64,000 nt of DNA from an uncultured Acidobacteriota bacterium (lineage in GTDB: Bacteria > Acidobacteriota > Thermoanaerobaculia > Gp7-AA8). Numbering within the stretch: the first letter of the stretch is position 1; each line of letters opens with the position of its first letter. The notes under the pieces are model-generated. The model was not told where the DNA came from. It saw only the letters and a program-made list of their open reading frames with translations, and did not search any database. The DNA lies in assembly GCA_963822445.1 (NCBI GenBank), contig CAWGHO010000003.1, positions 1,184,001 to 1,248,000 of the forward strand, written 5' to 3'. Of this stretch, positions 22,591-59,800 are shown in pieces. The translations under genes were made by a program, and so were the position numbers.

Positions 22591-22591
22591 G

Positions 22592-26933: not shown

Positions 26934-27859
26934 TTCACCGTGATCACGGCCTGCTGCCCGACCTGCAGGACGCCGTCGGGATTCGGTAGATCGACCACGA
27001 GGACCGCGCCGCCCGCGCCAGGCACGACCCTCTTCACCGGAACCGTGAATTTGCGCGGCGGGACGGTGAAGACCTTGACCTCGACCGGGACGCCGGCGCG
27101 GACGTAACGCACGAGCTCCGGCGCGATCGCGCCGCGAACGTCGACGGTGGCGTTGTTCGCGATCTCGACGACCGGGTCGCGCGGGAAGATGCTGTCGCCG
27201 ACGCGGGCATGCACGCGGGTGATGACGCCGCCGATCGGCGCAACCACGCGCAGGAGCGACTTGCGTTCACTGACGACTGCCTCGTCCGCGCGCGCTTTGT
27301 CGAGCTCGAGTTGGAGAAGGCTGGTGTCGGTCTGCACGACTTTGATCGACGCCCGCTCTTTTTCGGCGAGGTAATCGCGAAGCGCGGCGGCGTACTCGTT
27401 CTCCGCGTTCTCGAGCTCTTCCTTCGAGACGTCGCGGGTCTTGAACAGCTCGCGGTAGCGCTCCCGTTTGGTCTCGCGATTCTTGAGGATCTCCGCGGAG
27501 GCGCGCTCGCGGGCGCCGGAGTCGCCGAGGATCAGGGAGGTGGCGATCGGTCTGCGGGCGTCGCGGAGGCGCTGTTCGGCGACCGCGATCTGCGCGCGAA
27601 CGTGAGCGAGATCACGTTCGATGGAGGCGTTATTCAGCGTGGCCAGGAGCTGTCCGGGCTGCACGGTGGCCCCTTCGGCGACGTCGACCGTGGCCACGCG
27701 GCCGTCGACGGGGGCGATGGCGGTCGCGGTCTGCGCGCTCGCAACCTGCGCGCGGATCTCGACTTTCGGGACGTCCGCCGCCGCGACGTCGTCTTCCTTG
27801 TCGCAGCGCACGACGAGCAGCGACGCGGCAATGCAAGCCAGCATGAGGGTCGCGCGCAA
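26930..27859 (-). CDS. HlyD/RND periplasmic adaptor (membrane fusion) protein
   Basis: Lipoyl half-motifs APVDGRV..V.V.EG..V.PGQLL and VAPIGGVI; TTG start with GGAGG RBS. Confidence 0.85.
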   Translation of the reverse strand: MRATLMLACIAASLLVVRCDKEDDVAAADVPKVEIRAQVASAQTATAIAPVDGRVATVDVAEGATVQPGQLLATLNNASIERDLAHVRAQIAVAEQRLRDARRPIATSLILGDSGARERASAEILKNRETKRERYRELFKTRDVSKEELENAENEYAAALRDYLAEKERASIKVVQTDTSLLQLELDKARADEAVVSERKSLLRVVAPIGGVITRVHARVGDSIFPRDPVVEIANNATVDVRGAIAPELVRYVRAGVPVEVKVFTVPPRKFTVPVKRVVPGAGGAVLVVDLPNPDGVLQVGQQAVITVK

Positions 27860-30782: not shown

Positions 30783-31856
30783 CTACATCGCCGGCTGCTT
30801 GGCCACCTTCCGATAAAAAAAATCATCCTTCGCATCGTCCGGCGCTGAGCGGATGGTGCAGTTCAGGCAATCCACACCGGCGCGTGTGCGAATGAACTCT
30901 TCGCGCAAGGCGGCGAGCGGCGCTCCGTTCCAGATCGCGTCGAAGCTGTCGATCATCAGATTGCCGACCGGCGGCCGCGTCCAGGCCATGCAGGGATAGA
31001 CATCGCCGTTCGGGTGGATGGCGATGGTCGTCCAGGGCAGCTGGCAGATCATGGCCTGGCCCTGCTCGTCGAACAGATCGATGCGCGTCGGGCGTCCGCG
31101 GAGATAGCCCGCGTCTTCGATGCCCGTTCTCGCGACGAATGCGGCCAGCTGTTCGCGGCAGCGTTGCACTTTCGCCCAGAAGAGCGGGTCCTGCGTTTCC
31201 TGAATTACGGCGTCACTCATGCGCGACACCGTGCGAACCGCGATCTGCTCCGGCCGCACCTCTTCCATCAGCGCCAGGAACTCTTCGAAGTGATCGATGT
31301 TCGGCTCCGACAGGACGTGATTGATGCGCAGCGCTGGAATGGACGATCGCCGCATCGTTTGAAACAGGCGGACGTTGGCCATGACGTGGTCGAAACGCGA
31401 GCCGGTGCGCAGGCGCTCGAAGACTTCGCGCGTGCCGCCGTCGATGGAGAACGTGAACCGGTTGATGCCGGCGTCGAAGACTTTCTCCAGGATTCGAGGA
31501 TTGAGCAGCGTTCCGTTGGTGATGATGTCGCTGAACGGGACGCCCGCCTCGCGTACGCGCGCGAGCCGGTCCGGAAACTCGCGGGTCATGAACGGCTCGG
31601 TCATGATCGAAAGGCAGAGGTAATTCGTGTGTGGGAAAACGTCCTCGACGATCCGCTCGAAGAGCTCCACGGGCATGTCGTACTTGGCGATGCCGTCGAC
31701 GCGCGCATCGCTGAAGCCGCAGGTGCGGCAGCGGAGATTGCACTTGTTGTTCTGGTCCATGTAGACGCTGAGGAAGCGTCCGTTCGCCGCACTCGGACCG
31801 GTCCAGGAGAGCTTGTGCTTCAGGACGTCGTGATCGTCGAGGGGATGGGAAGTCAC
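30783..31856 (-). CDS. Radical SAM protein with SPASM/twitch domain
   Basis: CNLRCRTC motif; C-terminal CQLPW...GDVYPC...CLNC. Confidence 0.88.
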   Translation of the reverse strand: MTSHPLDDHDVLKHKLSWTGPSAANGRFLSVYMDQNNKCNLRCRTCGFSDARVDGIAKYDMPVELFERIVEDVFPHTNYLCLSIMTEPFMTREFPDRLARVREAGVPFSDIITNGTLLNPRILEKVFDAGINRFTFSIDGGTREVFERLRTGSRFDHVMANVRLFQTMRRSSIPALRINHVLSEPNIDHFEEFLALMEEVRPEQIAVRTVSRMSDAVIQETQDPLFWAKVQRCREQLAAFVARTGIEDAGYLRGRPTRIDLFDEQGQAMICQLPWTTIAIHPNGDVYPCMAWTRPPVGNLMIDSFDAIWNGAPLAALREEFIRTRAGVDCLNCTIRSAPDDAKDDFFYRKVAKQPAM

Positions 31857-42164: not shown

Positions 42165-43237
42165 GACGCGCGTTCCTGATGCTTTTGCTCGTCACGGCCT
42201 GCGCGAAAAAAGAGATGAGCGTCGCCGTCGTCGATCTTCCGGCCGGCGCGGTCGTCCCGTACGTCTCCGGCGATGGCGCGATCAGCTACATGGACGACAA
42301 GGCCAAGGCTTTCCGCATGATCACCTACCGCGACGGCCAGTTTTCGGAGCCGCGCACGATCGCGACCGACGAGGCGATGCTGATCAATCGCGCCGACTTT
42401 CCGTCGATCTCCGCCAACGGCAAGGACGTCGTTGCCGCATGGTCGACGCGGAAAGAGCATGGCTCGATCGTGCATGTCGCGAAATCGAGCGACGGCGGCG
42501 CAACGTGGTCCTCGCCGCGCACTCCGCATCCCGACGTCATCTCCCAGTTCGGCTTCGTCGCCCTGGCCGGCGAGGACTTCGTGTTTCTCGACGGGCGGAA
42601 GCTCGAAGGAGGCATGGAAGGAAACGGGGAGATGGAGTTGCGCGCGAGCGACGGCACAGCCCTCGATCCGCGCGTATGCGATTGCTGTCAGACCGCGATC
42701 GCCACAACCAGCGAGGGTCCGGTCGTCGCGTACCGCGACCGTTCGGCGGATGAAGTTCGCGACATCTCCATCGTCCGCAAGACGGCAACGGGATGGACGC
42801 AGCCGAAGGCCCTCAACGCCGACGGCTGGAAGATCCCCGGCTGTCCGGTGAACGGACCGCAGCTCGATGCCGATGGAAAACGCGTCGTGGCGGCCTGGTT
42901 CACCGGCGCGAACAACGATCCTCGCGTTTACGTCGCGTTTTCCGAGGACGCCGGTGCAACGTTCGGCAAGCCGATTCGCGTCGACGGCGGTCAGGCCGCT
43001 GGTCGCGTCGACGCTGTTCTCCTTCCCGACGGATCCGCGGCCGTGACCTGGGTCGCCCAGACCGGCGGCAAGTCCCAGCTCCACCTCCGCCGCATCAACC
43101 CCGACGCCACCCTCGGCAACCCGATTCCTCTCGGCGAATGCACCGGATTTCCGCGCGCCGCCGTTTGGGATGAGAATGTCGCCGTCGTCTGGAGCAGGCC
43201 CGGCGGCGCACACCTGGCAATCATCGAAAGGCTTTGA
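42161..43237 (+). CDS. BNR/Asp-box repeat (sialidase-like fold) lipoprotein
   Basis: Lipobox VTAC; Asp-boxes SSDGGATW and SEDAGATF; Cys motifs VCDCC and GCPVNGP. Confidence 0.75.
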   Translation: MRRAFLMLLLVTACAKKEMSVAVVDLPAGAVVPYVSGDGAISYMDDKAKAFRMITYRDGQFSEPRTIATDEAMLINRADFPSISANGKDVVAAWSTRKEHGSIVHVAKSSDGGATWSSPRTPHPDVISQFGFVALAGEDFVFLDGRKLEGGMEGNGEMELRASDGTALDPRVCDCCQTAIATTSEGPVVAYRDRSADEVRDISIVRKTATGWTQPKALNADGWKIPGCPVNGPQLDADGKRVVAAWFTGANNDPRVYVAFSEDAGATFGKPIRVDGGQAAGRVDAVLLPDGSAAVTWVAQTGGKSQLHLRRINPDATLGNPIPLGECTGFPRAAVWDENVAVVWSRPGGAHLAIIERL

Positions 43238-43818
43238 AACGGATGAAAAGACTCGGAGTGACTCTGGCCATCGCGATGCTCGTGGCGACGGCGTGCAAAC
43301 GTGAAGAGAAGGCCGAGCAGCCGGCACGGACGTTCGACAAACCGGGCAAGGCCACCTCGACGCGACCGGCGCCACCGCCGCCCGCTGCAGGCACCGAGGT
43401 CGGGTCGATGATGCCGGAGTACTCGGCGATGTGGCTGGACGGCTCGAAGTTCGAGCTGGAGACGCGCAAGGGAAACGTGGTGCTGCTCAACCTCTGGGCG
43501 ACGTGGTGCGGGCCGTGCCGCTACGAGATTCCCGAGCTGCAGACCATTCACGACAAGTACGCCGCGAAGAAGTTCGAGGTCATCGGGGTGAGCGTCGACG
43601 AGAGCGGCGTGGAATCGGTGCGCGATTTCGTGAAGGAACACGAGATGCGCTATCCGATCGTGCTCGATGCCGAGGGGAAGCTGGCCAACGTGTTTCAGAC
43701 CTCGGTGTTGCCGACCTCGGTGGTCATCGATCGAACGGGGAAGATCGTCTGGAAGAAATTCGGCGCGATCATGCCCAACGACGCGGAACTGACGAAAGCG
43801 ATCGAGTCGGCGTTGTAG
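43234..43818 (+). CDS. TlpA/ResA-family thiol-disulfide oxidoreductase lipoprotein
   Basis: Lipobox ATAC; NLWATWCGPCRYEIP active site. Confidence 0.92.
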   Translation: MKRMKRLGVTLAIAMLVATACKREEKAEQPARTFDKPGKATSTRPAPPPPAAGTEVGSMMPEYSAMWLDGSKFELETRKGNVVLLNLWATWCGPCRYEIPELQTIHDKYAAKKFEVIGVSVDESGVESVRDFVKEHEMRYPIVLDAEGKLANVFQTSVLPTSVVIDRTGKIVWKKFGAIMPNDAELTKAIESAL

Positions 43819-44214: not shown

Positions 44215-45300
44215 ATGGGTGAGATTTACGACACACTGGCGATCGACGAGCGGCTGCACGAGCCGCTTCGCGCGGCTTTGCGAGGCGAATCTGCCGCGTG
44301 GCCGGCAGATCTGACCGCGGACGAGATCGAGGCGCTGATCGAACACGGCGTCGTGCCGCTGGTTTACCGCGTCGTGCATTTGCCGCAATTGCGCGAGCTG
44401 GCCATCCGCGCCGCGGGAGTCGAGCCGCAGCGCCTCGCCGATCTGCGCGAAGTTCTCGAGGCGCTGGCGAAACGCGGGGTCGATGCGCTCATCCTCAAAG
44501 GCAGCGCGCTCGCGTACGAGATCTACGACGCGCCGGAGCTCCGCCCCCGCGGCGACACCGATCTGCTGATTTCGCGCGAGGCTTTGGAAGCGACTCGCGA
44601 AGCGCTGGCTGGTCTCGGATTCGAGGAGATTCCGGGCAGCGGCGACGAGCATGGCGTTCGCCAGGCGCTGTTCACACGCGGACCGCATACCTACGACGTT
44701 CACTGGTCGGTCGCCAACACTGCCGTTTTGCAGGGGGTTTTGCCGTTCGACGAGGTTCGCCGGCGCGCGGTGCCGTTGCCGCGCATTTCCGAGCATGGCC
44801 GCGGCCTGTCGCACGTCGACGCGCTTCTGCTCGCGTGCGTGCATCGCGTCGCCCATCACCACGACAGCGATCGCCTGATCTGGCTGTGCGACATCGCACT
44901 GCTGCGCGATCGGATGTCCGCGGAGGAGCATCAACAGTTCTGGCAGCTCGCGTCGGAACGGTGGATCGTCGGGATTTGTGAGCGGGCCGTGGAGCTGGCC
45001 GATGAGTGGATGTCACGCCCACCGCGGCATCGCGCCGAAAATTATTTATCCGAGGATGGGATCCGCCGCGATGAGCCTTCGCGCGTGCTGATGAACCGCC
45101 GCATTACCCGCGGTCGAGTCCTCGCCGCGAATCTGCGCGCATTGCCGTGGCGATCGCGGGCGCGCAGGATGTGGCAGCTCGCGTTTCCGCCGGCCTCGTT
45201 CGTCAAACGGAGCTTCGGCACGCGGAACCGGCTCGCGCTGCCATGGCTGTACGTGTACAGGGGAGCGAGAGGGATCGTGCGGTTGTTGCGGCGCGTTTAA
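44215..45300 (+). CDS. Nucleotidyltransferase family protein (RiPP-cluster associated type), copy 1
   Basis: LILKGSALA, RPRGDTDLL, YDVHW and LIWLCDI motifs. Confidence 0.85.
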   Translation: MGEIYDTLAIDERLHEPLRAALRGESAAWPADLTADEIEALIEHGVVPLVYRVVHLPQLRELAIRAAGVEPQRLADLREVLEALAKRGVDALILKGSALAYEIYDAPELRPRGDTDLLISREALEATREALAGLGFEEIPGSGDEHGVRQALFTRGPHTYDVHWSVANTAVLQGVLPFDEVRRRAVPLPRISEHGRGLSHVDALLLACVHRVAHHHDSDRLIWLCDIALLRDRMSAEEHQQFWQLASERWIVGICERAVELADEWMSRPPRHRAENYLSEDGIRRDEPSRVLMNRRITRGRVLAANLRALPWRSRARRMWQLAFPPASFVKRSFGTRNRLALPWLYVYRGARGIVRLLRRV

Positions 45301-45677: not shown

Positions 45678-45743
45678 CCGGGCCTCCCCGGGCCCAACCA
45701 AAGCAAACGGATTGCCAGCCGGATGACGTATCTTGGAGACGTT

Positions 45744-46073
45744 ATGAGCACTCTGGCCAAAGAGAAATGCGTTCCCTGCCGCGGCGGCGAGCCACCCATG
45801 CAGGGCCGGCTTCTGCGCGAGCTCGAGGGCCAGCTCGGGCCCGGCTGGAAGGTCGTCGTCGACCATCATCTTGAAAAAGAGATCGATTTTCCCGATTTCG
45901 CCACGGGGCTGGCCTACGTCAACCGCGTCGGAGCGCTGGCCGAGGAGGAAGGGCACCATCCCGACCTCTTCCTGGCCTGGGGAAAAGTGCGCATTTCGAT
46001 CTATACCCACAAGGTCGATGGCCTGACCCGCAGCGACTTCATCCTGGCCGCCAAGATCGATCAGCTAGAATGA
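45744..46073 (+). CDS. phhB: Pterin-4-alpha-carbinolamine dehydratase
   Basis: CVPCRGG, AEEEGHHPDL, THKVDGL..SDFILAAKID. Confidence 0.93.
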   Translation: MSTLAKEKCVPCRGGEPPMQGRLLRELEGQLGPGWKVVVDHHLEKEIDFPDFATGLAYVNRVGALAEEEGHHPDLFLAWGKVRISIYTHKVDGLTRSDFILAAKIDQLE

Positions 46074-46390
46074 GTCCGGTCCAGATGCCCGAAACGATGA
46101 TTGATGGAGCCCGTGTGTACCGTCACGCGGACGATGTGATCTGCCGTCAGGTCGGCACGGAGTCGATCCTCGTCCCGATCAAGAACAACGTGGGCAGCCT
46201 CGACTACATCTACACGCTCTCGGAGGTCGCGGCGCGGATCTGGGCGCTCCTCGACGGGACGCGCTCGATCGACGAAGTGGTGAGCACCATCTGTGAGGAG
46301 TACGAGGTAACCCGGGAGCAGGCAGCCGCTGACGTGGCTGAGCTCGTCTCGGATCTCGAGAACGTGTCGCTTGTTTTGCAGAAGAGCTGA
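46070..46390 (+). CDS. PqqD-family RiPP recognition element (RRE)
   Basis: YTLSEVAARIWALLDG..SIDEVV...EY.V......DV motif. Confidence 0.9.
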   Translation: MSPVQMPETMIDGARVYRHADDVICRQVGTESILVPIKNNVGSLDYIYTLSEVAARIWALLDGTRSIDEVVSTICEEYEVTREQAAADVAELVSDLENVSLVLQKS

Positions 46391-46394
46391 ATCA

Positions 46395-47651
46395 ATGATC
46401 GAAACGCGCCAATATTCGGACTTCAGCAGATCGGTTTTCGGGGCCGTCACGTCTATGCGCATCCCGATGAACGGAACGATCGAGATCTCGAATCGCTGCC
46501 CGCTCGAATGCGCGCACTGCTACAACAACCTGCCGATGAACGACGCGTCGGCCCGGAAGCGCGAGCTCACCACCGAGGAGCATTACAAGCTCCTCGACGA
46601 GCTGTCCGAGCTGGGAACCCTCTGGCTGCTCTTCACCGGCGGCGAGATTTTCGCGCGCCATGACTTCCTCGACATCTACCGCTACGCCAAGAAGCGCGGC
46701 TTCCTGATCACGCTCTTCACGAACGGCACGATGATCACCGAGCGCATCGCCGATGAGCTGGCGCGCATCCGGCCGTTCACGATCGAGATCACGCTCTACG
46801 GCCGCACCAAAGCGACGTACGAAGCGCTCACCGGCGTTCCGGGCTCGTTCGAGAAATGCATCCGCGGCATCCATCTGCTGCTCGAGCGCAAGCTGCCGCT
46901 CAAGCTGAAGACCGTCGCCCTGACGATCAACAAGCACGAGATCCAGGCCATGAAGCGCTTCGCCGAGGAGCTGGGCTGCGAGTTCAAGTTCGATCCGATG
47001 ATCAACCCGCGCATAGATTGCTCTGCGAGTCCGCTCGCCGTGCGGTTGACGCCGGAGGACATCGTCGGCCTCGATCTCGACGAGCCGAAGCGCGTCACGG
47101 AATGGCGCCGCATGGCGCTCGACTTCGCGGTCGTGCACCCGGAAGGGGAAACGCCGAAGGTTTACGACTGCGGCGGCGGGATGAACTCGTTCGCCATCGA
47201 TCCTTACGGCGAGCTGACGATCTGCGTGCTCTCGCACCAGGACACCTACAACGTCCGCAACGGCGTCCGCGACGGCTGGGAGAACTTCATCGGCAAGGTG
47301 CGCAACAAGCGCATCACCCGCGTCACCAAATGCACGAACTGCCAACTCAAGTCCCTGTGCGGCTCGTGCGCGGCGACGGCGGAGCTGGAGATGGGTGATC
47401 CCGAGGCGCCGGTCGATTTTCTCTGCAAGACCGCGCATCTGCGCGCGGAAGTCTTCGACGTGCCGGTGACCCCGCACGGCGACTGCGAATACTGCGGCGA
47501 TCAGAAAGAAACGATCACGACGATGGCCGAGCGCGTCCGCGCGAGGCGTTCGGGCGATCTGGCCGAGGCCATTGCCGCAACGCCGATGGCGGCCATGGAA
47601 GCGAAGGGCGGATGCGGACCGTCCTGCGGCAGTTGTTCGGTCGGGCGATAA
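46395..47651 (+). CDS. Radical SAM/SPASM peptide maturase
   Basis: CPLECAHC, TGGE; SPASM CGGG...DPYGELTIC...CTNC..KSLCGSC...FLC; extra Cys-rich tail. Confidence 0.92.
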   Translation: MIETRQYSDFSRSVFGAVTSMRIPMNGTIEISNRCPLECAHCYNNLPMNDASARKRELTTEEHYKLLDELSELGTLWLLFTGGEIFARHDFLDIYRYAKKRGFLITLFTNGTMITERIADELARIRPFTIEITLYGRTKATYEALTGVPGSFEKCIRGIHLLLERKLPLKLKTVALTINKHEIQAMKRFAEELGCEFKFDPMINPRIDCSASPLAVRLTPEDIVGLDLDEPKRVTEWRRMALDFAVVHPEGETPKVYDCGGGMNSFAIDPYGELTICVLSHQDTYNVRNGVRDGWENFIGKVRNKRITRVTKCTNCQLKSLCGSCAATAELEMGDPEAPVDFLCKTAHLRAEVFDVPVTPHGDCEYCGDQKETITTMAERVRARRSGDLAEAIAATPMAAMEAKGGCGPSCGSCSVGR

Positions 47652-47663
47652 TCAGGAGAGACG

Positions 47664-47843
47664 ATGAAAAATCAGAACGGTCAGCGCAACGGCAAGAAAC
47701 CATACGAGCGTCCGGTCGTGGCCCGCTTCGAGCTGCGCACCGAGGAAGCAGTCCTCGGATTCTGCAAGACCGACGGCACTTCCGGCCCGAGCAACGTCGG
47801 CGGCTGCATCAACGTCAACGTCTGCCGCATCAACGGCTCGTAG
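47664..47843 (+). CDS. Putative RiPP precursor, 59 aa: MKNQNGQRNGKKPYERPVVARFELRTEEAVLGFCKTDGTSGPSNVGGCINVNVCRINGS
   Basis: aggag RBS; RRE-binding-type KPYxxP leader motif; three Cys in the C-terminal half; directly follows the rSAM gene. Confidence 0.85.
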   Translation: MKNQNGQRNGKKPYERPVVARFELRTEEAVLGFCKTDGTSGPSNVGGCINVNVCRINGS

Positions 47844-47848
47844 ACGCC

Positions 47849-48712
47849 GTGTCCGACGATCACTTCCTGCAGATCGGCGGGATCACGATCGCCCTCCGCT
47901 GCACGGACGATCGCGTGCGCTGGCAATGGAGCCCCGCGACCCACCGCTTCCTGATCTCCCCCCAACACGCCGACGTCGAGATCGAAGTCGGCGTTCTCGA
48001 TTCAGCGTTCCCCACCGGTGGTGAGCTCGTCTTCGATTCCGGCGCGGTCTGGCGGATGTACCGCGACGGCGACGGTTACCGCATCGAGTGCTACTCCGAT
48101 TCGTTCGAAGCAGGTCCCTACAAAGTCGCGCGTTTCGATTCGTCGTTTACCCGCGGCGAGATTCGCATCCGCCCCGACATTCTTCCACTCCAGCTCGCAC
48201 CGATCGACTACCCCCTCGACGAGCTGCTCATGGTCAACCTCCTCGGCCGCAACCGCGGTGTGGAGCTCCACTCCTGCGGTGTGATCGATCACGCCGGCCG
48301 CGGCCATCTCTTCGTCGGCATGTCCGGCGCCGGTAAAAGCACGACCGCGCACTTGTGGGAAGGCGCGTCGCACGGAGTCGTGAGCGATGACCGGGTGATC
48401 CTCCGCGAGGAGGATGGCGCGTTGTGGATGTATGGGACGCCGTGGCATGGCGAGGCCGAGCTGTCGATGGCGACGCGCGCGCCGCTCGTGGATGTCTATC
48501 TGCTCGTGCAGGCCGGGGCGAACGAGATTCGACCGATTCCGCATGCGGAATCGGTGGCGCGTCTGTTCGGCTGCGCCTTCCCGCCGTTCTACGACGCGCC
48601 GTCGGTCGATTACACGCTCGGGTTTCTCGACCGGCTGGTGAATGCCCTTCCCGTTCGCGAGCTGCGCTTCGTTCGCGATCGAAGCGTCGTCGACCTGGTG
48701 CTCGCGGCATGA
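47849..48712 (+). CDS. HPr kinase-like P-loop protein (putative peptide kinase)
   Basis: LHSCGV, GMSGAGKST and VSDD motifs; GTG start after the precursor. Confidence 0.75.
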   Translation: MSDDHFLQIGGITIALRCTDDRVRWQWSPATHRFLISPQHADVEIEVGVLDSAFPTGGELVFDSGAVWRMYRDGDGYRIECYSDSFEAGPYKVARFDSSFTRGEIRIRPDILPLQLAPIDYPLDELLMVNLLGRNRGVELHSCGVIDHAGRGHLFVGMSGAGKSTTAHLWEGASHGVVSDDRVILREEDGALWMYGTPWHGEAELSMATRAPLVDVYLLVQAGANEIRPIPHAESVARLFGCAFPPFYDAPSVDYTLGFLDRLVNALPVRELRFVRDRSVVDLVLAA

Positions 48713-49149
48713 CTCTCGAGGCCGCGGACGTGATCGCGGACCTGCTCGCGCGCGGCCACTCCGTGCGCTTTCGCGCGACCGGCCACAGCATGCATCCGAT
48801 CATCCGCTGCGACGACTACCTGCTCGTCGAGCCGGTTTCGACCATCGTCCGCGGCAGCGTGGTGCTGACGCTCGCCGAACGTGGATTGACGGCGCATCGC
48901 GTGGTCGAAGTCGCGGATGGAATGGTCGTGACGTGCGGCGACAACGTCACCGGTCCGGATCCAGCGATTGAAAGTTCGCGCGTGTTGGGCGTGGTCACGC
49001 ACGCGGAGCGGAACGGCCGGACGCGGCGGGTGATCGCTTTGTCAGGTGTCGCGCTGAACGTGTGGCGATTCGCGTTGCGGGCGCTAATCCACTTTGCGCC
49101 GGACGCTCATCTCCGACGTGTTCCCCGTCGCGTCGATGGCGATCGCTGA
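48709..49149 (+). CDS. S24/S26 family peptidase (putative leader peptidase)
   Basis: GHSMHP, AHRV and GDN motifs; ATGA coupling. Confidence 0.8.
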   Translation: MTLEAADVIADLLARGHSVRFRATGHSMHPIIRCDDYLLVEPVSTIVRGSVVLTLAERGLTAHRVVEVADGMVVTCGDNVTGPDPAIESSRVLGVVTHAERNGRTRRVIALSGVALNVWRFALRALIHFAPDAHLRRVPRRVDGDR

Positions 49150-51115: not shown

Positions 51116-52192
51116 TTAAACGAGGGCCCGGTCGCGCAACTCGCGCTTGATGAAGGCGTAGACGATCGGCGCCATGACCACGCCCCCCACACCGAAAGCC
51201 GCCTCGCCGACGATGATGGCCAGAAGGATCTCCCAGGCCTGCGAATCGGTCTCGCCGCCGACGATGCGCGAATTGATCAGGTACTCCAGTTTGTGGATGA
51301 CCACGAGGAAGGTCAGCGACGCCACCGCCGTCCCGATGGAGACCCCCATCGACAGGATGGTGATGACCGTGTTCGAGATCAGATTGCCGAGAACCGGGAT
51401 CAGGCCGCAGAGGAAGGTGACGATGACCAGCGTCGTCGCGAAGGGAACATGGATGCCGAAGAGCGGCAGCACGACCAGCAGGTACAGGCCGGTCAACGTG
51501 GTGTTGACGGCCGAGATCTTCACCTGGGCCATGGCGATGCGCGAGAAGGCGTGGGCGAAGCGGTCCACTTTTTCCACGAGATGGCGGGCCAGCGGGCCGC
51601 GATTCACGTCGTCGTGCTTCGTCACGTGCCGGAAGAACACCAGCAGCGCGAGCAGGCCGCCCATGATCATGTAGAAGAAGCCGATGGTCAGCCAGAGACC
51701 GCCCGCGCGAATGGTCTGCGCGTGCGTTTTCAGCCAGGTCGCGACAGTCAGCTTGAAGTCTTCCGCATCGGTCATGACCTCGGGGATGAACTGCCGCCCC
51801 AGACCGCCCAGCCACAGCCGTACCGACCCGAGAATCTCCGCCATCTGCTCCATCATCTCGGGCAGGTTGCCTGCGCCGCGGCGAAGCATCATCGCCGTCA
51901 ACGCGATCAGTCCGGTGATGACGATGCCGGTGACTGTCGTGACGGCGAGCAGGGCCAGCGGGCGGACGACACCGTGGGACATCCTTCCCTTGAACCGCTC
52001 GGAGACGCGATCGAGGATCAGGTAGAGGGCCAGGCCCATGATCAGGGCCGGGACGAGGTCCTGCCAGAGCACGAACAGAACGCCCGCCGCGACGACCGCG
52101 TAGGCGGTGATCTCTTCCCACGGCATGCGCTGGCGCGGCTGCGGAGCAGGCGCGTCTTCGAGCGCGATGGGGACGATCGGGCTGGTGGACAT
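51116..52192 (-). CDS. AI-2E family transporter
   Basis: AQVKIS, GLIPVLGN and HKLEY motifs, multi-TM. Confidence 0.85.
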   Translation of the reverse strand: MSTSPIVPIALEDAPAPQPRQRMPWEEITAYAVVAAGVLFVLWQDLVPALIMGLALYLILDRVSERFKGRMSHGVVRPLALLAVTTVTGIVITGLIALTAMMLRRGAGNLPEMMEQMAEILGSVRLWLGGLGRQFIPEVMTDAEDFKLTVATWLKTHAQTIRAGGLWLTIGFFYMIMGGLLALLVFFRHVTKHDDVNRGPLARHLVEKVDRFAHAFSRIAMAQVKISAVNTTLTGLYLLVVLPLFGIHVPFATTLVIVTFLCGLIPVLGNLISNTVITILSMGVSIGTAVASLTFLVVIHKLEYLINSRIVGGETDSQAWEILLAIIVGEAAFGVGGVVMAPIVYAFIKRELRDRALV

Positions 52193-52253
52193 TGCACAGA
52201 TTGTAGTCGGTCGGGGGGAACAGGCCGTACGCTTGCAGGAGTTGCGAACCAGC

Positions 52254-53291
52254 ATGATCGCTTCGCAGTTGCGCGAGCCGCTTCGGCGAATCCTAGAGAA
52301 GCGCGAAGTCGCCGCGCTGATCGGCGAGGGGATCGGCCCGCTGATGTACGCGGCGACACACGATCCTCGATTTCACGCCGAGGCTTTGCGGGTTGCGGCG
52401 GCGGAGCCGTTGCGGCTGGAGGATTTGCGCGAGGTTCTGCAGGCGATCGGCGTGCGTGCGCTGCTGGTGAAAGGCACTGCCCTGGCCTATGACCTTTACG
52501 CGCAACCGGAGCATCGTCCGCGCACCGATACCGATCTGCTCATCGCACGGAACGACCTTCCCGCGGTTCGCACGGCCATGGCGCGACTGGGATTCGAAGA
52601 GCAGATCACCAGCGGCGACGAGCATGGCCTCCGGCAGGTCGGCTTTTCGCGCGTCGATCGCTTCGGCGTCGAGCATCTGTACGACGTGCATTGGGCTGTC
52701 GCGAACTCGCCGCTGTTCGCCGATGTCATTCGCATCGAAGAGGTCGAGCCGGTTCCATTGCCGAAGATCGATGCGAACGCCTACGGACTCTCGCGCGTCG
52801 ATGCGCTGCTCCTGGCTTGCATCCATCGCGTTGCCCATCACCACGATGATGAGCGGCTGATCTGGCTGGCCGACATCGCTCTGCTCCGCTCGCGGATGAC
52901 CATCGAGGAGCACCGCCTGTTCTGGGAGCGCGCCGCCGAGCGGCGCGTGCTCGCGGTCTGCCGCCGCTCCATCGACGTTGCCGAAAGCTGGTTCGGCGGC
53001 GAAGCGGAACACGCCGCGGAGCGATTCCTGAGGCCGGAGCAACTGGCGCAGGATGAGCCGTCGCGCGTGCTGCTCGATCGCGACGTGACCTATGGGCGGG
53101 CGACGCTCGCTGAAATGCGCGCGCTGCCGTGGAGCGCACGGCTCACGCGGTTGCGCCAGCTCGCCTTTCCGCCACGCGCATTCATGGAGGAAGCGTTCGC
53201 CACGCGCAGCGCGATCGCATTGCCGTGGCTTTACGTCTACCGCGGCGCTCGCGGCGTGGCGCGGCTCTTCCGACGGGCGGCCGACTTATGA
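52254..53291 (+). CDS. Nucleotidyltransferase family protein (lasso-cluster associated), copy 2
   Basis: LLVKGTALA, RPRTDTDLL, YDVHW and ACIHRVAHHH; clear paralog of 44215..45300. Confidence 0.85.
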   Translation: MIASQLREPLRRILEKREVAALIGEGIGPLMYAATHDPRFHAEALRVAAAEPLRLEDLREVLQAIGVRALLVKGTALAYDLYAQPEHRPRTDTDLLIARNDLPAVRTAMARLGFEEQITSGDEHGLRQVGFSRVDRFGVEHLYDVHWAVANSPLFADVIRIEEVEPVPLPKIDANAYGLSRVDALLLACIHRVAHHHDDERLIWLADIALLRSRMTIEEHRLFWERAAERRVLAVCRRSIDVAESWFGGEAEHAAERFLRPEQLAQDEPSRVLLDRDVTYGRATLAEMRALPWSARLTRLRQLAFPPRAFMEEAFATRSAIALPWLYVYRGARGVARLFRRAADL

Positions 53292-53719
53292 AGAGGTTGC
53301 GCAGGTTCTTCGCGCTGCCGCCCGACGAGCGAAGACTGCTGATCGCCGCGGCGGCGCGCCTCGTCATCGCGCGGATGCTTCTCTCGACGATCGGCGTCTC
53401 GCGCACGCGACGCTGGCTCGCGAACAACAGCGAGTCGCACATCGATGGCGCTTCCGCGGCGCGCATCGCCCAGTCGGTCCTGCGCATCGCGCCGCATCTG
53501 CCGCTGCGCACGAACTGTCTCGATCGCGCGGTCGCGCTCTGGTGGCTGCTGTCCTCGCGCGGTCTGGCCGCCGACCTCCGCCTCGGCGTCCGCAAGAAAG
53601 ACGACGCCTCCCTCGGCGCACACGCCTGGGTCGAGCATGAAGGGATCGTGCTTCTCGACGACGAGGCCGCGCATTACCTGCCGCTCGACGCGCCGATGCT
53701 CGCCTCCGGAGGACGATGA
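53288..53719 (+). CDS. Lasso peptide leader peptidase (B2 protein, transglutaminase-like)
   Basis: NCLDRA, LGV and AHAWVE catalytic motifs. Confidence 0.92.
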   Translation: MKRLRRFFALPPDERRLLIAAAARLVIARMLLSTIGVSRTRRWLANNSESHIDGASAARIAQSVLRIAPHLPLRTNCLDRAVALWWLLSSRGLAADLRLGVRKKDDASLGAHAWVEHEGIVLLDDEAAHYLPLDAPMLASGGR

Positions 53720-55479
53720 GCGGCTACGCGGCGCTGGTCCGGTTCGACGGCGCGCCGATCGACGAGGCGTTCGTTTCGTACCTCGCCAATTCGATCCGCT
53801 TCCGCGGTCCGGACGGCGACGGGCAATGGATCGGCGAGCAGGCGGCGATGGTCCATTCGCTGCTCGCCACGAACGGCACCGCCAAGCAGCCCGTGCGTCT
53901 CGGCGAGACGGTCATCGCCGGAGACATCCGCATCGACGGCCGCGATCGGGCCGATCCGTCGAGCGATGCCGAAGTCGTCCTGCGGGCGTATGCGAAGTGG
54001 GGCGACGCCTTCCTCGAGCACCTCATCGGCGATTTCAGCTTCGCCATCTGGGACGGCGCGCAACGCCGGCTCGTCTGCGCTCGGGACCACTTCGCCCGGC
54101 GTCCGCTGTTCGTGACCCGGCACGACGGCGCGGTGCTGGTCACGAACAATCTGACGACACTGCTGGACATCCCCGGCCTGGCGGACGATCTCGACGACGC
54201 GGCCGTCGCCGACTTTCTGCTGTTCGGCAGAAATCTGCACGCGGAACGGACGACGTTCGCGCGCATCTCCCGCGTGCCGGCCGCGCATTCGCTCGTCGTG
54301 ACGGCGCAGGGGCAGCAACTGCGACGCTACTGGTCGATTCCGATGCGCGACGCGCCGCGGCGGATCTCGGAAGCCGATGCCCAGGCGGAGTTTCGCGACG
54401 TTCTCACGCAGGCCGTCATGGACCGGGCCCGCGCCGTTCGGATCGTGATCTCGCTTAGCGGGGGGATGGATTCGAATGCCGTCGCATCGGCGTTGACGCG
54501 GCAACGGACCACCGGCGTGAGCGCCCTGACCAACGTCTGGACGGAAATGTTCGCGGACGACGAAGGGCGGCTGGCGAAGATCGCCGCCGATCACTACGGA
54601 ATCCCCATCGAATTTCACGTCGCCGACCGGTGCGAGGCCTTCGAGGGCTGGGACGATCGCCGCGTCCGCGGTCTGGAACCGACCGACGAGCCCTGCACGG
54701 CGCTCTTTCACACGTTCGTCGCGGCCGCGCTGGCGAAGGGGCGGGTGATCCTCACCGGCGAGGGAGGCGATCCCGCGCTCTACACGTCGCACGACTACTT
54801 TTTCAATCTGCTGAAGCGCATGCGCTGGCTGCGATTCCTCCGCGATGCGGTGGGCTTTACCATCACCCGGCGCCGGCGTCCGCCGCTGCTTCTCCGCTCG
54901 CAAATGCTGCGGGTCATGGGCCGACAGCGCACGCCGGACTATCCGGATTGGATCACGCCGGAGCTCGAAGCCCGTCTGCACCTTCGCGACCGCTGGGACG
55001 AGATTTACGGACCGCCGCGCCCGCCCGTGCATCCCTATCGCGCCGGGGCGTGGCACCTGATCGACAGCGCCACCTGGGCCCGCACGTTCGAGGCGAACGA
55101 CGCCGGCGCGACCGGCAAACCGCTGGAGTGGTCGTCGCCCTATTTCGACGTCCGGCTGATCGAATTTCTCTTCTCTCTGCCGCCGATGCCGCATTCCGCC
55201 AACAAGGACATCGTGAGACAGGGCCTGCGCGGATGGATCCCTGACGAGCTCCTCCGCCGGAGGAAGACCCCCCTGCCGATGGACACCAGCGCGGTGCGGT
55301 TCGAACAGACCGCGCCGAAGTGGCTGAAAACGGTGGAATTGGCGGTCGGGCTCGACAATTGGCTAAAGCGGCCTACACTTTGCGAAGCAGTACGTAAGGG
55401 CGGCTCGCACTACCAATATTCGCAGCAGGCATTCGCGGTCTCCTTTGCTCTATGGCTAAGCAAACGGCAGCGGTCGTGA
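53716..55479 (+). CDS. Lasso peptide cyclase (asparagine synthetase-like C protein)
   Basis: RGPD, ARD and SLSGGMDS, TGEGGD motifs; begins MSG, lacking the Cys needed for glutaminase activity. Confidence 0.88.
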   Translation: MSGYAALVRFDGAPIDEAFVSYLANSIRFRGPDGDGQWIGEQAAMVHSLLATNGTAKQPVRLGETVIAGDIRIDGRDRADPSSDAEVVLRAYAKWGDAFLEHLIGDFSFAIWDGAQRRLVCARDHFARRPLFVTRHDGAVLVTNNLTTLLDIPGLADDLDDAAVADFLLFGRNLHAERTTFARISRVPAAHSLVVTAQGQQLRRYWSIPMRDAPRRISEADAQAEFRDVLTQAVMDRARAVRIVISLSGGMDSNAVASALTRQRTTGVSALTNVWTEMFADDEGRLAKIAADHYGIPIEFHVADRCEAFEGWDDRRVRGLEPTDEPCTALFHTFVAAALAKGRVILTGEGGDPALYTSHDYFFNLLKRMRWLRFLRDAVGFTITRRRRPPLLLRSQMLRVMGRQRTPDYPDWITPELEARLHLRDRWDEIYGPPRPPVHPYRAGAWHLIDSATWARTFEANDAGATGKPLEWSSPYFDVRLIEFLFSLPPMPHSANKDIVRQGLRGWIPDELLRRRKTPLPMDTSAVRFEQTAPKWLKTVELAVGLDNWLKRPTLCEAVRKGGSHYQYSQQAFAVSFALWLSKRQRS

Positions 55480-55607
55480 GTTCTCGAAAGCCGTACGCAT
55501 CGCCACGTTTGACGCGGTATGGATCGGTCCGCGCGCTCACTCGCGAGCTGGGGTGCTACACCAACAAAGACAGCGGCTCGAACGCTGTCTGCCGCCGCTC
55601 GCCGTAG
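55476..55607 (+). CDS. Lasso peptide precursor, 43 aa: MSSRKPYASPRLTRYGSVRALTR-ELGCYTNKDSGSNAVCRRSP
   Basis: GTGA-coupled to the cyclase; leader YxxPxL...G.....T(-2); Asp at core position 9. Confidence 0.88.
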   Translation: MSSRKPYASPRLTRYGSVRALTRELGCYTNKDSGSNAVCRRSP

Positions 55608-55610
55608 GCC

Positions 55611-56543
55611 GTGTTCCATTACCGCGTCTACGGCCTTCAGATCACCTCTGCGATCCCCATCGACGGTCTGATTCCCAACGATGACGCGCCAGGCGACTGC
55701 GAGCTGTTCGCCGGGCCGGTGGACATGCTGCCCGCCGACGAGGCGATCGTCCTCGACACGTCGCCGCTGATCGAGGAAGGGGAGCCGGGAACGCGCGTGG
55801 AGCGCAGCCGCAACGACCGGGGCACGTTCGTCTTCGAGTTCCTCGACGGCACGCGCTTCCGCATCGACGAATCGGGCCGCCGCATCACCGCGCACATTGA
55901 ATCAAGCACCCCCGAGGACATGGCCACGTACCTGCTCGGGCCGATCCTCGCCTTCATCGTCCGGCTGCGCGGCGCACTGGCACTTCACGCCGGGGCCGTA
56001 GTTCTCGACGATCACGCTCTGCTCATCACCGGCGTCGCCGGCGCCGGCAAATCGACGACCGCCGCCGCATTCCTCGGCCGCGGCGCATCGCTGTTGAGTG
56101 ACGACGTCTCCGTGATCGACTGTCAGGGCGATACGCCGCACGTTTTTCCGGGCTATCCGCGGGTGCGGCTCTGGGACGACTCCGCGGCCGCGCTGTACGG
56201 ATCGCCGGAAGCGCTGCCGCTGCTGACACCGACCTGGTCGAAGCGCTTCGTCGACGCGCGCCGGCAATTCGCAACCGGCAGCGTTCCCATTCGCGCCATC
56301 GTCGTTCTCGCGCCGCGTCACGACGCCCCGCCGCATACGCGACCACTCGCCGGTCACGAAGCGGCCATGGCCCTGCTCGTCCGCACGTCGATGACCCACT
56401 TGCTCACGCCCGAACAACGCAAGGCCGAGCTGGATCAGGTGACGCGTGTCGCGGAACGCGTCCCCATCATCGAAGTGACGCCGCGCGATGACCTCCGCGC
56501 GACGGGCGAGCTGGTTGATGCAATCGCCGCCGCGATACTGTGA
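55611..56543 (+). CDS. HPr kinase-like lasso peptide kinase
   Basis: LHAGAV, GVAGAGKST and LSDD motifs; located within the lasso operon. Confidence 0.82.
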   Translation: MFHYRVYGLQITSAIPIDGLIPNDDAPGDCELFAGPVDMLPADEAIVLDTSPLIEEGEPGTRVERSRNDRGTFVFEFLDGTRFRIDESGRRITAHIESSTPEDMATYLLGPILAFIVRLRGALALHAGAVVLDDHALLITGVAGAGKSTTAAAFLGRGASLLSDDVSVIDCQGDTPHVFPGYPRVRLWDDSAAALYGSPEALPLLTPTWSKRFVDARRQFATGSVPIRAIVVLAPRHDAPPHTRPLAGHEAAMALLVRTSMTHLLTPEQRKAELDQVTRVAERVPIIEVTPRDDLRATGELVDAIAAAIL

Positions 56544-56547
56544 AGCC

Positions 56548-56835
56548 ATGCGCTGGGACGCGACGTTCCGTGCGGCCGATCACGTGGTCGCGAAACTGGT
56601 CGGCGAAGAGCTGGTCCTGCTCGATTACGAAGGTGAGGTCTACTACGGCCTCGATCCCGTCGGCGCGCGCATCTGGGAGCTCCTCACCGCCGGCAGAACC
56701 CTCGGCGAGATCATCGACACGCTGCTCGCCGAATACGACGTGACCCGCGATCAGCTCGCCGCCGACGTGGAGCGGGTGGTGGGGGAACTGGAGAGTAACG
56801 GGCTAGTGAAAGTCGTGACTGGCCACGTCCCCTAA
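56548..56835 (+). CDS. PqqD-family RRE (lasso B1 protein)
   Basis: ELVLLD...YYGLDPVGARIWELL...EYDV motif. Confidence 0.92.
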   Translation: MRWDATFRAADHVVAKLVGEELVLLDYEGEVYYGLDPVGARIWELLTAGRTLGEIIDTLLAEYDVTRDQLAADVERVVGELESNGLVKVVTGHVP

Positions 56836-59800
56836 TCCCTCCAGCCCCCAGAACTTCTCCGCCTTCACCGACGGCTGCCCCTCCAGGTTCTGCACGATCC
56901 CTTCGACGATCAGGCCGGAGTTGCGAAGGATCGTGCTGCGCTCGTCGGAGAAGAGGCGAGGGCTGACGATGGCCTGCGAGAGCCCGGTCTCGTCCTCGAG
57001 CGTGAGGAAGACGAAGCCTTTCGCGGTTCCCGGACGCTGGCGGACGATCACCGCGCCGGCCGTGGTCACGCGGCTGCCGTTGCGGGCCGTCTTCAACTGC
57101 GCCGCGGTGAGAATGCCCTGCTTTTTCAGGTGCGGACGGAAGTGCTCGAGGAGATGGCGGCCGGTGGTCAGCTCCATCGCGTTGTAATCGGCCATCGTCT
57201 CTTCGGCGGCGAGCATCTCCGGCAGCGGCGATCCCTTTGAATGTGATGTTTCCTCGAACAGCTCGCCGCCCGGTTTTGCCGCGTACGACGCCTGCCACAG
57301 CGCGGCGCGTCGCGTCAGACCGAACGATCCCAGCGCACCGGCGTACGCGAGCTTCGTCATCTGATCGTCGCGCAGGCGCGCACGGCGCGCGAGATCGTCC
57401 GCGGACGTGAACGGCTGCGCGGCCTCGATGCGCCGTCCCGTATCGGCGCGCAGCCCTTTCACGAATCGCAGGCCGAGGCGGACGGCGTTGTTTTCCCAGC
57501 GGCACATCCAGCCCGATTTGTTCACGTCCACCGGCAGGACCTTCGTCCGATGCCGCTGCGCGTCCTTGATCAATGTCGCCGGGTGGTAGAAGCCCATCGG
57601 CCAGGCATTGAGCAGCGAGATATAAAACGCCGCCGGATGATGCGCCTTGAGATACGCGCTGGCGTAGGCGATGAGCGCGAAGCTCGCCGCGTGCGACTCC
57701 GGGAAACCGTAAAGAGCGAAGGAAGTGATCGACTTGACGATCTGGTCCTGCGCCGCGATGCCGATCCCGTTCGTGGTCATGCCCGCGCGCAGGCGCTTCT
57801 CGATGTCCTGCATCCGCTCCATCGACCGCTTGAACCCCATCGCCCGCCGCAGCTCCTCGGCCTCACCGCCGGTGAAATTCGCCGCGACCATCGCGATCTT
57901 GAGAAGCTGCTCCTGGAACAGCGGAACGCCGAGAGTTCGCTCGAGGATCGGCTCGAGACAGGGATGGGGATACTCGACCGGTACCTTTCCCTGACGTCGA
58001 TCGAAAAACGGCTTGATCATGCCGCCGACGATCGGACCGGGGCGGATGATGGCCACCTGCACGACGATGTCGTAGAAGGTCTTCGGCGCGTTGCGCGGCA
58101 GGGAGGCCATCTGCGCGCGGCTCTCGACCTGGAACATGCCGATGGTGTCGGCCTCGTTCAGCATCTTGTAAACGGCGGGATCGTCCTGGGGCAGATGGGC
58201 AAGGTCAACTTCTTTACCTTCGCACCGGCGGATCATCGGAATCGCTTCCTCGATCGCGGCTAGCATCCCCAGTCCGAGGAGGTCCACTTTGATGATGCCC
58301 AGGTCCGCGCAGTCTTCCTTGTCCCATTGGCAGACCACGCGGCCGGGCATGGCCGCGGGCTCGAGCGGCACTACTTCGTCGAGGCGGCCCTTGGCCAGGA
58401 CCATGCCGCCGGAGTGCTGGCCGAGGTGGCGGGGGAGGTTCTGGATCTGGAGGTAGTGCCGCATGAAGTGCTGCACGCGGAGGTCGTCCGGATCGAAGCC
58501 GCTCCTGGCCAGTTCCTGCGGAAGGTTGTCGATCTGTTCGCGGATCTCGCCGAAGTGCCAGGTGCTCACGGTCTTGGAGAGCTTGTCGGCCTGCTCGAGT
58601 GAGAAGCCGAGAGCCTTGCCGACTTCGCGCGCGGCGGAGCGGTCGCGGTAGGTGATGACGTTCGCGGTCATGGCCGCGCCGTGCTTTCCGTATTTTTCGT
58701 AGACGTGCTGGATGACTTTCTCGCGCTGATCGCCGGACGGCAGGTCGAGGTCGATGTCCGGCCACTCGCCTCGTTCTTCCGAGAGGAATCGCTCGAAAAG
58801 CAGGTCCATCTTCACCGGATCGATGGCGGTGATGCCGAGGGCGTAGCAGACCGCGCTGTTCGCCGCGGAGCCGCGGCCCTGCACGAGGATCTTCGAGCGA
58901 TTGCAGAACTGAACGATGTCCCAGACGATCAGGAAGTAGCCCGCGAGCTGGAGCTTCTCGATCATGTTCAGCTCCTTCTCGATCTGCCGCTGCGCTTTCG
59001 CGGTCAGAGGGCGGAAGCGGGCGGTGGCCGCGTTCCAGGCGATCTTGCGGAGAAAGGAGTCGTTGGTCTCGCCGGGCGGCAACGGGTAGTCGGGGAACTG
59101 ATAGCCGAGGTCGGCCAGGGTGAAGTCGAGGGTGTTGGCGAGCTCCCAGGCGCCGGTGATGGCCGACGGGAGATCGGCGAAGAGCTTGTCCATCTCAGCA
59201 GCTGATTTGATGTGGCGCTCGCGATTGATGCCGAGGAGCTGGCCGGCTGTGTCGACGTTCCTCCCTTCGCGGATGCAGGTGAGGATGTCGTGCAGCTCCT
59301 TGTCCTCGGCACGCGCATACCGGACGCCGTTCGTCGCTACAAGGGGTAGACCGAGCTTTCCGGCTAAATCGACCAGCCGGACGTTGTGGTGTTCCTCCTC
59401 CCGATTGAAGTGCCGCTGCAATTCGACATGCGTGCGCCCGCTGAAGATGCCACTGATCTTGTGCACCGTGGCGTCGTCGGCACGGGTGAGGCAATGCAGC
59501 CCGGCGGCGTGCTGCTCGATGAGCTCCCAGGTGTAGCGGGCCTCGCCTTTGGGATGCTCGAGCGCCCCCGCAGTGAGCAACCGGCAGAGGTTTTTGTAGC
59601 CGGCGCGATTCTCGACGAGGAGGGTGATCGTCCTCGTCTCATCCATCCGCAGCTCGGAGCCGATGAGCGCCTTCACCCCGTTCTTCCTGGCCGCCGTGTG
59701 AAAGCGCGGCGCGCCATACAGGCCATTGGCATCGACGATGGCCATGGCCGGCAGATCTTTCTGGATGGCCTGGTAGATGAGGTCTTCGGGCAGGCTCGAC

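Follow-up and report, generated by a model that had tools for sequence, protein, structure and literature searches.

The 64,000-nucleotide stretch of DNA analysed here (hereafter the window) comes from an uncultured Acidobacteriota bacterium of the Thermoanaerobaculia (Gp7-AA8; GenBank assembly GCA_963822445.1, contig CAWGHO010000003.1, positions 1,184,001 to 1,248,000 of the forward strand), and we focus on six co-directional genes on its plus strand, at positions 52254-56835, that are predicted to produce a lasso peptide. Based on the listing of open reading frames (ORFs) and on Pfam and NCBIfam scans, the genes are arranged in the order N-B2-C-A-K-B1, encoding a nucleotidyltransferase (NTase), a leader peptidase, a lasso cyclase, the precursor peptide, a peptide kinase, and a recognition element (RRE) for peptides that ribosomes make and that are modified after translation (RiPPs) (Table 1). 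Catalytic motifs were intact in all five enzymes of the N, B2, C, K and B1 set when aligned with relatives. We consider it likely that the six genes form an intact operon for a tailored lasso peptide, and this peptide probably carries a phosphate-based decoration. The family scans bore out a first-pass annotation of this DNA, made from the sequence alone, which had described a complete lasso cluster with split B genes, a kinase and an NTase in this order.

The genes are closely packed, and the description "tightly coupled" in that annotation was accurate. N and B2 overlap by 4 nucleotides (nt), with the B2 ATG at 53288 lying 4 nt inside the end of the N stop; B2 and C also overlap by 4 nt and C and A by 28 nt, and gaps of 3 and 4 nt separate A from K and K from B1, respectively. 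A second in-frame ATG is possible for B1 at 56518, and the 3' end of B1 is overlapped by a converging DnaE2-like gene. Upstream of N lies a divergent AI-2E-family transporter gene (51116-52255, minus strand). Within 52107-52256, the longest ORFs of this transporter (ATG 52255) and of N (ATG 52254) stand back to back with zero intergenic DNA; the transporter start is more likely an internal ATG, at 52192 or 52126, which would leave a spacer of 61-127 nt. The sole sigma-70-like site in a scan of 51800-57200 was found at 55352-55379 (plus strand), in the 3' part of C and 73 nt before the A start, and it might raise transcription of A-K-B1, with one such site seen versus 0.3 ± 0.5 expected in the scanned region, which is weak evidence. 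A hairpin within A (55568-55590, flagged as terminator-like on the minus strand) was considered as an attenuator and rejected, as 55545-55625 had a folding z of -0.58 and 59 of 200 shuffled sequences were equally folded. Rfam and tRNA scans of the 64-kb window returned no match.

Table 1. Predicted features of the lasso operon and of the neighbouring radical S-adenosylmethionine (rSAM) cassette; positions are those of the window.
Feature	Prediction	Position	Strand	Evidence or remark
N	PF14907 nucleotidyltransferase, PsmN-like tailoring enzyme	52254-53291	+	PF14907 E 1.3e-24
B2	Transglutaminase-like leader peptidase	53288-53719	+	PF13471 E 3e-21; NF033537 82.7 bits, cut-off 33
C	Asparagine-synthetase-like lasso cyclase	53716-55479	+	PF00733 E 1.4e-26; NF033535 E 2e-74
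A	Precursor, 51 aa	55452-55607	+	NF033521 lasso leader 23.3 bits, cut-off 19
A, leader part	31 aa, MAKQTAAVVSSRKPYASPRLTRYGSVRALTR	55452-55544	+	
A, core part	20 aa plus stop, ELGCYTNKDSGSNAVCRRSP	55545-55607	+	
K	HPr-kinase-like peptide kinase, 310 aa	55611-56543	+	Weak HPr-kinase matches only
B1	PqqD-family RiPP recognition element	56548-56835	+	PF05402 E 3e-21
NTase2	Nucleotidyltransferase	44215-45300	+	52% identical to N
Pterin-4a-carbinolamine-dehydratase-like gene		45723-46073	+	
PqqD2	PqqD-like protein	46070-46390	+	PF05402 E 1.6e-17; top NCBIfam model a lasso PqqD; 4-nt overlap with preceding gene
rSAM/SPASM	Radical-SAM/SPASM protein	46395-47651	+	Many peptide-maturase models matched, all below cut-off
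A2	Cys-rich precursor ORF, 59 aa	47664-47843	+	AGGAG 6 nt before ATG
K2	HprK-like	47849-48712 (GTG start)	+	Intact H / P-loop / DD set
S24	S24-type peptidase	48709-49149	+	4-nt overlap with K2

The predicted processing enzymes have conserved active sites. In B2, neither the catalytic Cys (within NCLDRA) nor the His (within AHAWVE) varied in any of the 57 relatives aligned. C combines Asn_synthase and GATase domains, with the lasso cyclase NF033535 as its top NCBIfam model (251 bits, under the cut-off of 525); it matched the AsnB-type TIGR01536 at 174 bits (under the cut-off of 267). Its PP-loop, SGGMDS, is intact, and SGGxDS was conserved in the alignment of relatives. Class-II glutamine amidotransferases and glutamine-hydrolysing AsnB enzymes need an N-terminal Cys nucleophile. 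C begins Met-Ser-Gly, and residue 2 is Ser in 73 out of 76 family members, so an ordinary amidotransferase, the possibility that the first-pass annotation had raised against its own reading, is unlikely. The best NCBIfam models for B1 were lasso PqqD chaperones (51.6 and 49.4 bits, both under their cut-offs).

The precursor A carries a leader with a YxxPxL...T motif, formed by Tyr15, Pro18, Leu20 and Thr30. In lasso leaders, Tyr is reported at -17, Pro at -14, Leu at -12 and Thr at -2 (PMC10368454), and with this register the core starts at Glu32. The predicted core has Asp9, Cys4 and Cys16 and ends in R-R-S-P, so the Ser-Pro terminus was read correctly in the first pass, and its linear form has a computed monoisotopic mass of 2155.97 Da. 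A ring of nine residues, Glu1-Asp9, is predicted. A profile built from family leaders matched A at E 1.3e-9 across 1232 reading-frame segments of the window, and four database proteins (50-52 aa) were 69-88% identical to A and retained its core pattern, which together argue that A is not a chance ORF. We found no second lasso precursor in the window, with the leader profile giving one other match, the A2 ORF of the neighbouring rSAM cassette (E 0.012, the next being at 0.91).

Conservation among the close precursors was concentrated in the core. The window peptide and its four close homologues shared E1, G3, C4, Y5, K8, D9 and S12-N-A-V-C16-R-R-S19, and varied in leader residues and at ring positions 2, 6 and 7; the homologues end in S-P or S-L. 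Asp9 was invariant across six aligned precursors. The C-terminal Thr of the nearest other precursor with Glu1 (from locus L027, described below) aligned to Ser19 of the window peptide.

Fold and active-site residues point to a P-loop kinase for K. Its sequence matches were weak (PF07475, 23.9 bits with a cut-off of 33.3; TIGR04352, E 7e-10; the HprK structure 3tqf in the Protein Data Bank (PDB), E 0.0015). Its AlphaFold2 model was predicted with a local distance difference test score (pLDDT) of 93.6, and a fold search returned PEPCK and the catalytic domain of HprK, in keeping with a P-loop kinase fold. Residues H126, G141, G144, G146, K147, S148, D164 and D165 were conserved in 63-71 of 71 relatives. 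This set of a His, a P-loop GxxGxGKS and an Asp-Asp pair has the same spacing as H148-G163-G166-G168-K169-S170-D186-D187 of BsfK, where the motif residues matter by mutagenesis (PMC10368454). Distant relatives of K (27%-37% identity) were also present in a plasmid collection. One of them, in Tistrella, stands alone, and another belongs to an annotated D-B1-B2-C-K lasso cluster on Sulfitobacter indolifex plasmid NZ_CP084955.1 (L082, 27660-34261), where a sulfotransferase adjoins the cluster, the kinase is 27% identical to the window K, and no precursor is annotated.

For N, the fold search alone was informative, as a sequence search against the PDB gave nothing significant (best E 0.19). The AlphaFold2 model (pLDDT 86.6) matched Pol-beta-type NTases, including MenT toxins, JHP933, ANT(2'')-Ia and LnuA, with target-normalised template modelling (TM) scores of 0.61 for MenT1 (E 4.6e-4) and 0.61-0.62 for ANT(2'')-Ia (E 0.06-0.09). 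PsmN, the NTase of pseudomycoidin, has likewise been reported as ANT(2'')-like (PMC6993621). Residues K73, G74, R88, D92, D94 and H191 of N were invariant in an alignment of 22 sequences and make up the hG[GS] and DxD motifs. The invariant D92/D94 pair corresponds to D134/D136 of PsmN, residues that this enzyme needs to give +162 Da adducts on the phosphate (PMC6993621).

Characterised systems combine these enzymes in several ways. The pseudomycoidin (psm) cluster of Bacillus pseudomycoides has the order C-A-K-B1-B2-N-D; PsmK adds one or two phosphates to the precursor's C-terminal Ser, and the attachment of one or two hexoses (+162 Da) to the phosphate depends on PsmN (PMC6993621). Compared by gene content and reported features, psm and the window share split B1 and B2, a C followed directly by A, an HprK-type K that comes next, and an NTase of the PF14907 type with a catalytic DxD. 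The psm ring also has nine members (Ala1-Glu9), like the one predicted here. The two differ in gene order and in D, which is absent from the window operon, and the psm core starts with Ala, ends with Ser and has no Cys, whereas the window core starts with Glu, ends with Ser-Pro and has Cys4 and Cys16. The kinases of paeninodin, ThcoK and SyanK (the last from a Sphingobium) work ahead of B2 and C, while the precursor is still linear (PMC9266682), and their His-Lys-Asp-Asp catalytic set is also found in the window K. Their acceptor is strictly the C-terminal Ser, whereas the window peptide and most of its family have a Ser or Thr one or two residues before the end, and the paeninodin cluster is without an NTase (PMC6993621), unlike that of the window.

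The bsf cluster of Bradymonas sediminis (Deltaproteobacteria) encodes A, B1, B2, C, D, K and N; its kinase, BsfK, adds phosphate to Ser3, and B1 stimulates this activity (PMC10368454). Like the window operon, it is non-Firmicute, has both K and N, and shares the kinase motif spacing, and its sister cluster mmv also does without a D exporter. It differs in having Ile(-2), a Gly1-Asp8 ring, phosphorylation at Ser3 and an encoded D, compared with Thr(-2), Glu1-Asp9 and a Gly at position 3 in the window. The placement of Cys4 and Cys16 is that of class III lasso peptides such as BI-32169, in which ring and tail each contain a Cys (PMC13352647). We found no mention of kinase or NTase tailoring of class III peptides in the available portion of PMC13352647, and no dedicated wider search was made; to our knowledge, a class III-type Cys pair together with phosphorylation would be a new combination. 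In a limited literature search, no lasso peptide of the kinase type had been characterised from Acidobacteriota, nor any product from the clade described below. The genome-mining tables of Zhu 2016 (JBC) and Tietz 2017 (RODEO) may already list clusters of this clade.

We propose a pathway whose steps are inferred from the paeninodin, pseudomycoidin and BsfA systems. K, with its HprK/PEPCK fold, would phosphorylate the still-linear precursor, most likely at Ser19 in R-R-S-P, and N, as a Pol-beta-fold enzyme with DxD, would extend the phosphate, with a hexose as in pseudomycoidin or, as an alternative, a nucleotide. B2 would cleave after Thr(-2)-Arg(-1), and C would adenylate the Asp9 side chain and couple it to the alpha-amine of Glu1, producing the nine-residue ring around the tail. 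By analogy with class III peptides, Cys4 in the ring and Cys16 in the tail would probably be joined by a disulfide. Computed neutral monoisotopic masses are 2137.963 Da for the lactam and 2135.948 Da for the lactam with the disulfide; the latter would rise to 2215.914 Da with a phosphate, to 2377.967 or 2540.020 Da with a phosphate and one or two hexoses, and to 2465.000 Da with AMP.

To place the operon among its relatives, we scanned 185,579 species genomes with C, which gave 188 confirmed relatives but no identical genome, and examined the best 80 loci (29%-41% identity). Acidobacteriota metagenome-assembled genomes (MAGs) contributed 62 out of 80, with phylum taken from record titles and with some order and family names that we take to belong to Acidobacteriota. 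K was present at 71 of these loci, and C was followed by K within 900 nt at 63 and by A within 400 nt at 67; the full C-A-K arrangement occurred at 59. A precursor behind the cyclase, called unusual in the first-pass annotation, is instead the norm, and the same order is found in psm and listed for clusters from soil-metagenome Acidobacteria (PMC9064862). B1-B2-C was seen at 47 loci and an NTase within ±6 kb at 24. N followed directly by B2 was found at none of the 80 and K followed directly by B1 at one, and the unusual trait of the window is its outer gene order only, with N-B2 upstream and B1 downstream. These comparisons place the cluster in a large clade, mostly of Acidobacteriota, with C-A-K as its conserved centre. 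The first-pass statement that such clusters are characterised mainly from Firmicutes and modify a C-terminal Ser is mistaken or out of date, given this phylum distribution, the Bradymonas bsf cluster with K, N and a modified Ser3, and the Sphingobium source of SyanK.

Two features of the related loci were recorded alongside gene order. A methyltransferase-like gene of about 380 aa often follows K (33 out of 80 loci, e.g. L046 9673-10821), a label assigned by eye from a VMDVGTGPG-type motif. The closest cyclase, at 41% identity, comes from a Thermoanaerobaculia MAG (L027, 6001-7829) and is followed by the Glu1 precursor noted above. Because B1, B2 and K were not detected within ±6 kb there, L027 was not useful for synteny; it may be a minimal C-A locus, comparable with the B-less cyanobacterial cluster in PMC6993621.

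Precursors at the related loci were collected with a motif search that also permitted I, V or A at -2. After 12 of 87 peptide matches were removed by hand as false positives (not beside C and lacking a KKxY leader), the set held 75 peptides, drawn from the window and 70 loci (71 sources), with Thr(-2) in 74 of them. A Ser or Thr fell within the last four residues of 70 cores and was preceded by K or R in 54; the pattern [KR][ST] followed by 0-3 residues closed 54 of the 75. By position (non-exclusive counts), Ser or Thr was the last residue of 17 cores, the next to last of 31 and the third from the end of 27. The R-R-S-P end of the window peptide fits the [KR]-[ST]-x pattern, and across these sequences a Ser or Thr near, not at, the C-terminus appears as a family trait. 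The earlier suggestion that the modification site may differ from the terminal Ser is thus plausible, but as a property of the whole family and not a peculiarity of the window peptide.

Within the predicted core, Ser19 is the likely phospho-acceptor. An unlikely alternative keeps the lasso as described and assigns K and N other roles, with phosphorylation at Ser12, Thr6 or Ser10, a nucleotide added by N, or tailoring genes that serve the neighbouring cassette. It draws on the activity of BsfK at Ser3 rather than at the C-terminus, on the conservation of Ser12 in the window and its four close homologues, on the direct chemistry of PsmN, which is not settled in the available portions of PMC6993621 and PMC9266682, and on a second set of K, NTase and RRE genes 3-8 kb upstream of the lasso operon. 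Set against this are the family counts, in which Ser or Thr at core position 3 occurs in just 17 out of 75 compared with the high frequency near the C-terminus, the variation of Thr6 and Ser10 among the five close precursors, and the location of K directly after A.

The core boundary allows a second alternative, in which cleavage after Leu33 makes Gly3 the first residue and gives a seven-residue Gly-Asp ring. Characterised lasso peptides most often begin with Gly, and seven-residue lasso rings exist; Gly34 of the precursor was invariant in the six aligned sequences, and this boundary would restore the usual Gly1. It would also place Thr at -4 and Y/P/L at -19/-16/-14, out of the otherwise fixed register, and Glu32 was equally invariant in the same six precursors. 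Moreover, the first residue after T-x was highly variable across the 75 family cores (T 23, S 16, A 11, G 7, K 6, N 3, F 2, E 2, R 2, M 2 and V 1), so a start other than Gly is normal in the family, and we regard cleavage after Leu33 as improbable. An Asp or Glu stood at core position 9 in 51 of 75 cores, including that of the window, and was found only at position 10 in 19, only at 8 in two and only at 11 in one, with two cores having none in positions 7-11. The cores with Asp or Glu only at position 10 (among them those of L002, L004, L008, L019 and L020) would have either a ten-residue ring or cleavage one residue later, with Thr at -3.

Several observations weigh against an intact and active operon for a phosphorylated lasso peptide. 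Curated cut-offs were not reached in NCBIfam by C, K and B1, nor in Pfam by K, and among 185,579 species genomes the closest cyclase is just 41% identical, so function is carried over from far relatives. Glu as core residue 1 is rare (2 out of 75 family cores). Ser is not the last residue of the window precursor, unlike in PadeK-type substrates, and Ser12 is as conserved as Ser19 among the five close precursors; since BsfK shows that such kinases can act in the ring region, Ser19 is a preference and not a result. We found no convincing sigma-70-like promoter upstream of N in the scanned region, and the related bsf cluster stayed silent in all of the hosts tried (PMC10368454). Finally, no exporter was found: as the first-pass annotation had stated for exporter and isopeptidase genes adjacent to the operon, Pfam detected neither an ABC_tran domain nor, for an isopeptidase, an S9 / prolyl-oligopeptidase domain in the 44 window ORFs.

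With respect to export, 9 out of 34 ORFs in one Pfam scan had no family assigned, so an unrecognisable transporter could hide there. Neighbours of the related loci included proteins labelled by eye as ATP-binding cassette (ABC) ATPase-like (26 out of 80 loci) and ABC-2 permease-like (13 out of 80), and neither these nor the methyltransferase-like proteins of relatives had a tblastn match in the window at E<=0.01. The AI-2E-family transporter was considered as the missing exporter but not supported, as a homologue was present in 0 out of 80 related loci at E<1e-5.

A second predicted RiPP cassette, at 45723-49149, lies 3.1 kb upstream of the lasso operon, with two minus-strand genes between them. 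It includes a radical-SAM/SPASM protein, the precursor ORF A2 and the HprK-like K2, with NTase2 4 kb further upstream (Table 1). PqqD2 is 42% identical to B1, and K2 matched K around the P-loop only (30% over 126 residues). A2 matched no NCBIfam or Pfam model. Invariant in A2 and its 16 homologues (62%-98% identical) are KKxYxxP, RFELRTEEAVLGFCK, three Cys and a Gly-Ser at the C-terminus. Atlas clusters that resemble A2 each hold 52-110 proteins labelled hypothetical, which are most frequent in Acidobacteriota and Thermodesulfobacteriota. A plasmid collection searched with K2 gave partial matches only, and a literature search found no description of a peptide system combining rSAM, HprK-like and PqqD proteins. 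A2-type precursors were absent from the 80 lasso loci (weak cross-matches to lasso leaders only, best E 0.029), so the two cassettes are not usually linked; at E<1e-5 these loci had no K2- or S24-like ORF, and an rSAM-like ORF occurred only in L010.

That Cys4 and Cys16 are instead substrates of the rSAM/SPASM enzyme, giving a lasso hybrid with a thioether bridge to which both cassettes contribute, is highly improbable, since A2, a conserved Cys-rich precursor of the cassette's own between the rSAM gene and K2, accounts for that enzyme without the lasso peptide, and the intervening minus-strand genes and the rarity of such ORFs at lasso loci also speak against it. What favours a hybrid is the scarcity of Cys in the family (2 out of 75 cores, the window and L080), with the window also carrying the rSAM cassette, the likeness of PqqD2 to B1, and a predicted fold of PqqD2 with the lasso precursor that scored 0.59 compared with 0.01 for the best control, a verdict of "weak support". 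Of 157 solved complexes, 116 reached the mark used for such folds, as did 2 of 215 mismatched pairs; at scores of <=0.60 only 18 of the 157 and both passing mismatches did so, counts that hold only roughly here as a custom alignment was used; the runs agreed in at least 93% of contacts, with a partner pLDDT of at least 52. Because RRE-leader complexes have been solved and the A and A2 leaders share KKPYxxPx, this weak pass may show likeness only.

Other genes in the window may be mentioned here. A TlpA/ResA-like thiol-disulfide oxidoreductase (43234-43818, plus strand) lies directly upstream of NTase2 and, by proximity alone, could serve in forming a disulfide in either of the Cys-containing peptides. 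Another radical-SAM/SPASM protein (30783-31856, minus strand), with twitch/SPASM maturase matches below cut-off, lies beside an EAL-domain gene, and six large ORFs (94-870 aa) at 18320-27107 had no Pfam family at E<=1e-4.

Together, these comparisons make the lasso cluster a variant of the known kinase- and NTase-tailored kind, and less exceptional than first thought; the neighbouring rSAM-kinase cassette is the more novel object. At the level of its predicted genes and peptide, the lasso cluster is set apart by the order of its genes, by Glu1, by a conserved pair of Cys in ring and tail, and by a Ser that stands one place before the end instead of at it. Few kinase- and NTase-tailored lasso peptides have been characterised, and this clade departs from the textbook in allowing nearly any residue at core position 1 and in having a hydroxyl acceptor near, not at, the C-terminus. 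Given the conserved Cys pair, the product would join a class III-type lock to phospho-tailoring. The two cassettes share an enzyme-precursor-kinase order, a paralogous RRE (42%) and NTase (52%), and the KKPYxxPx leader. We tentatively raise the possibility, which we hold with less confidence than the lasso operon itself, that they form a twin RiPP island in which an HprK-like kinase and a PF14907 NTase would act as a portable, leader-guided module for tailoring the C-terminus in two unrelated RiPP classes, with the rSAM cassette representing a new class of phosphorylated RiPP. The rSAM cassette has a predicted kinase of its own and a precursor whose C-terminal Ser is invariant, and it makes testable the idea that such tailoring is not confined to lasso peptides.

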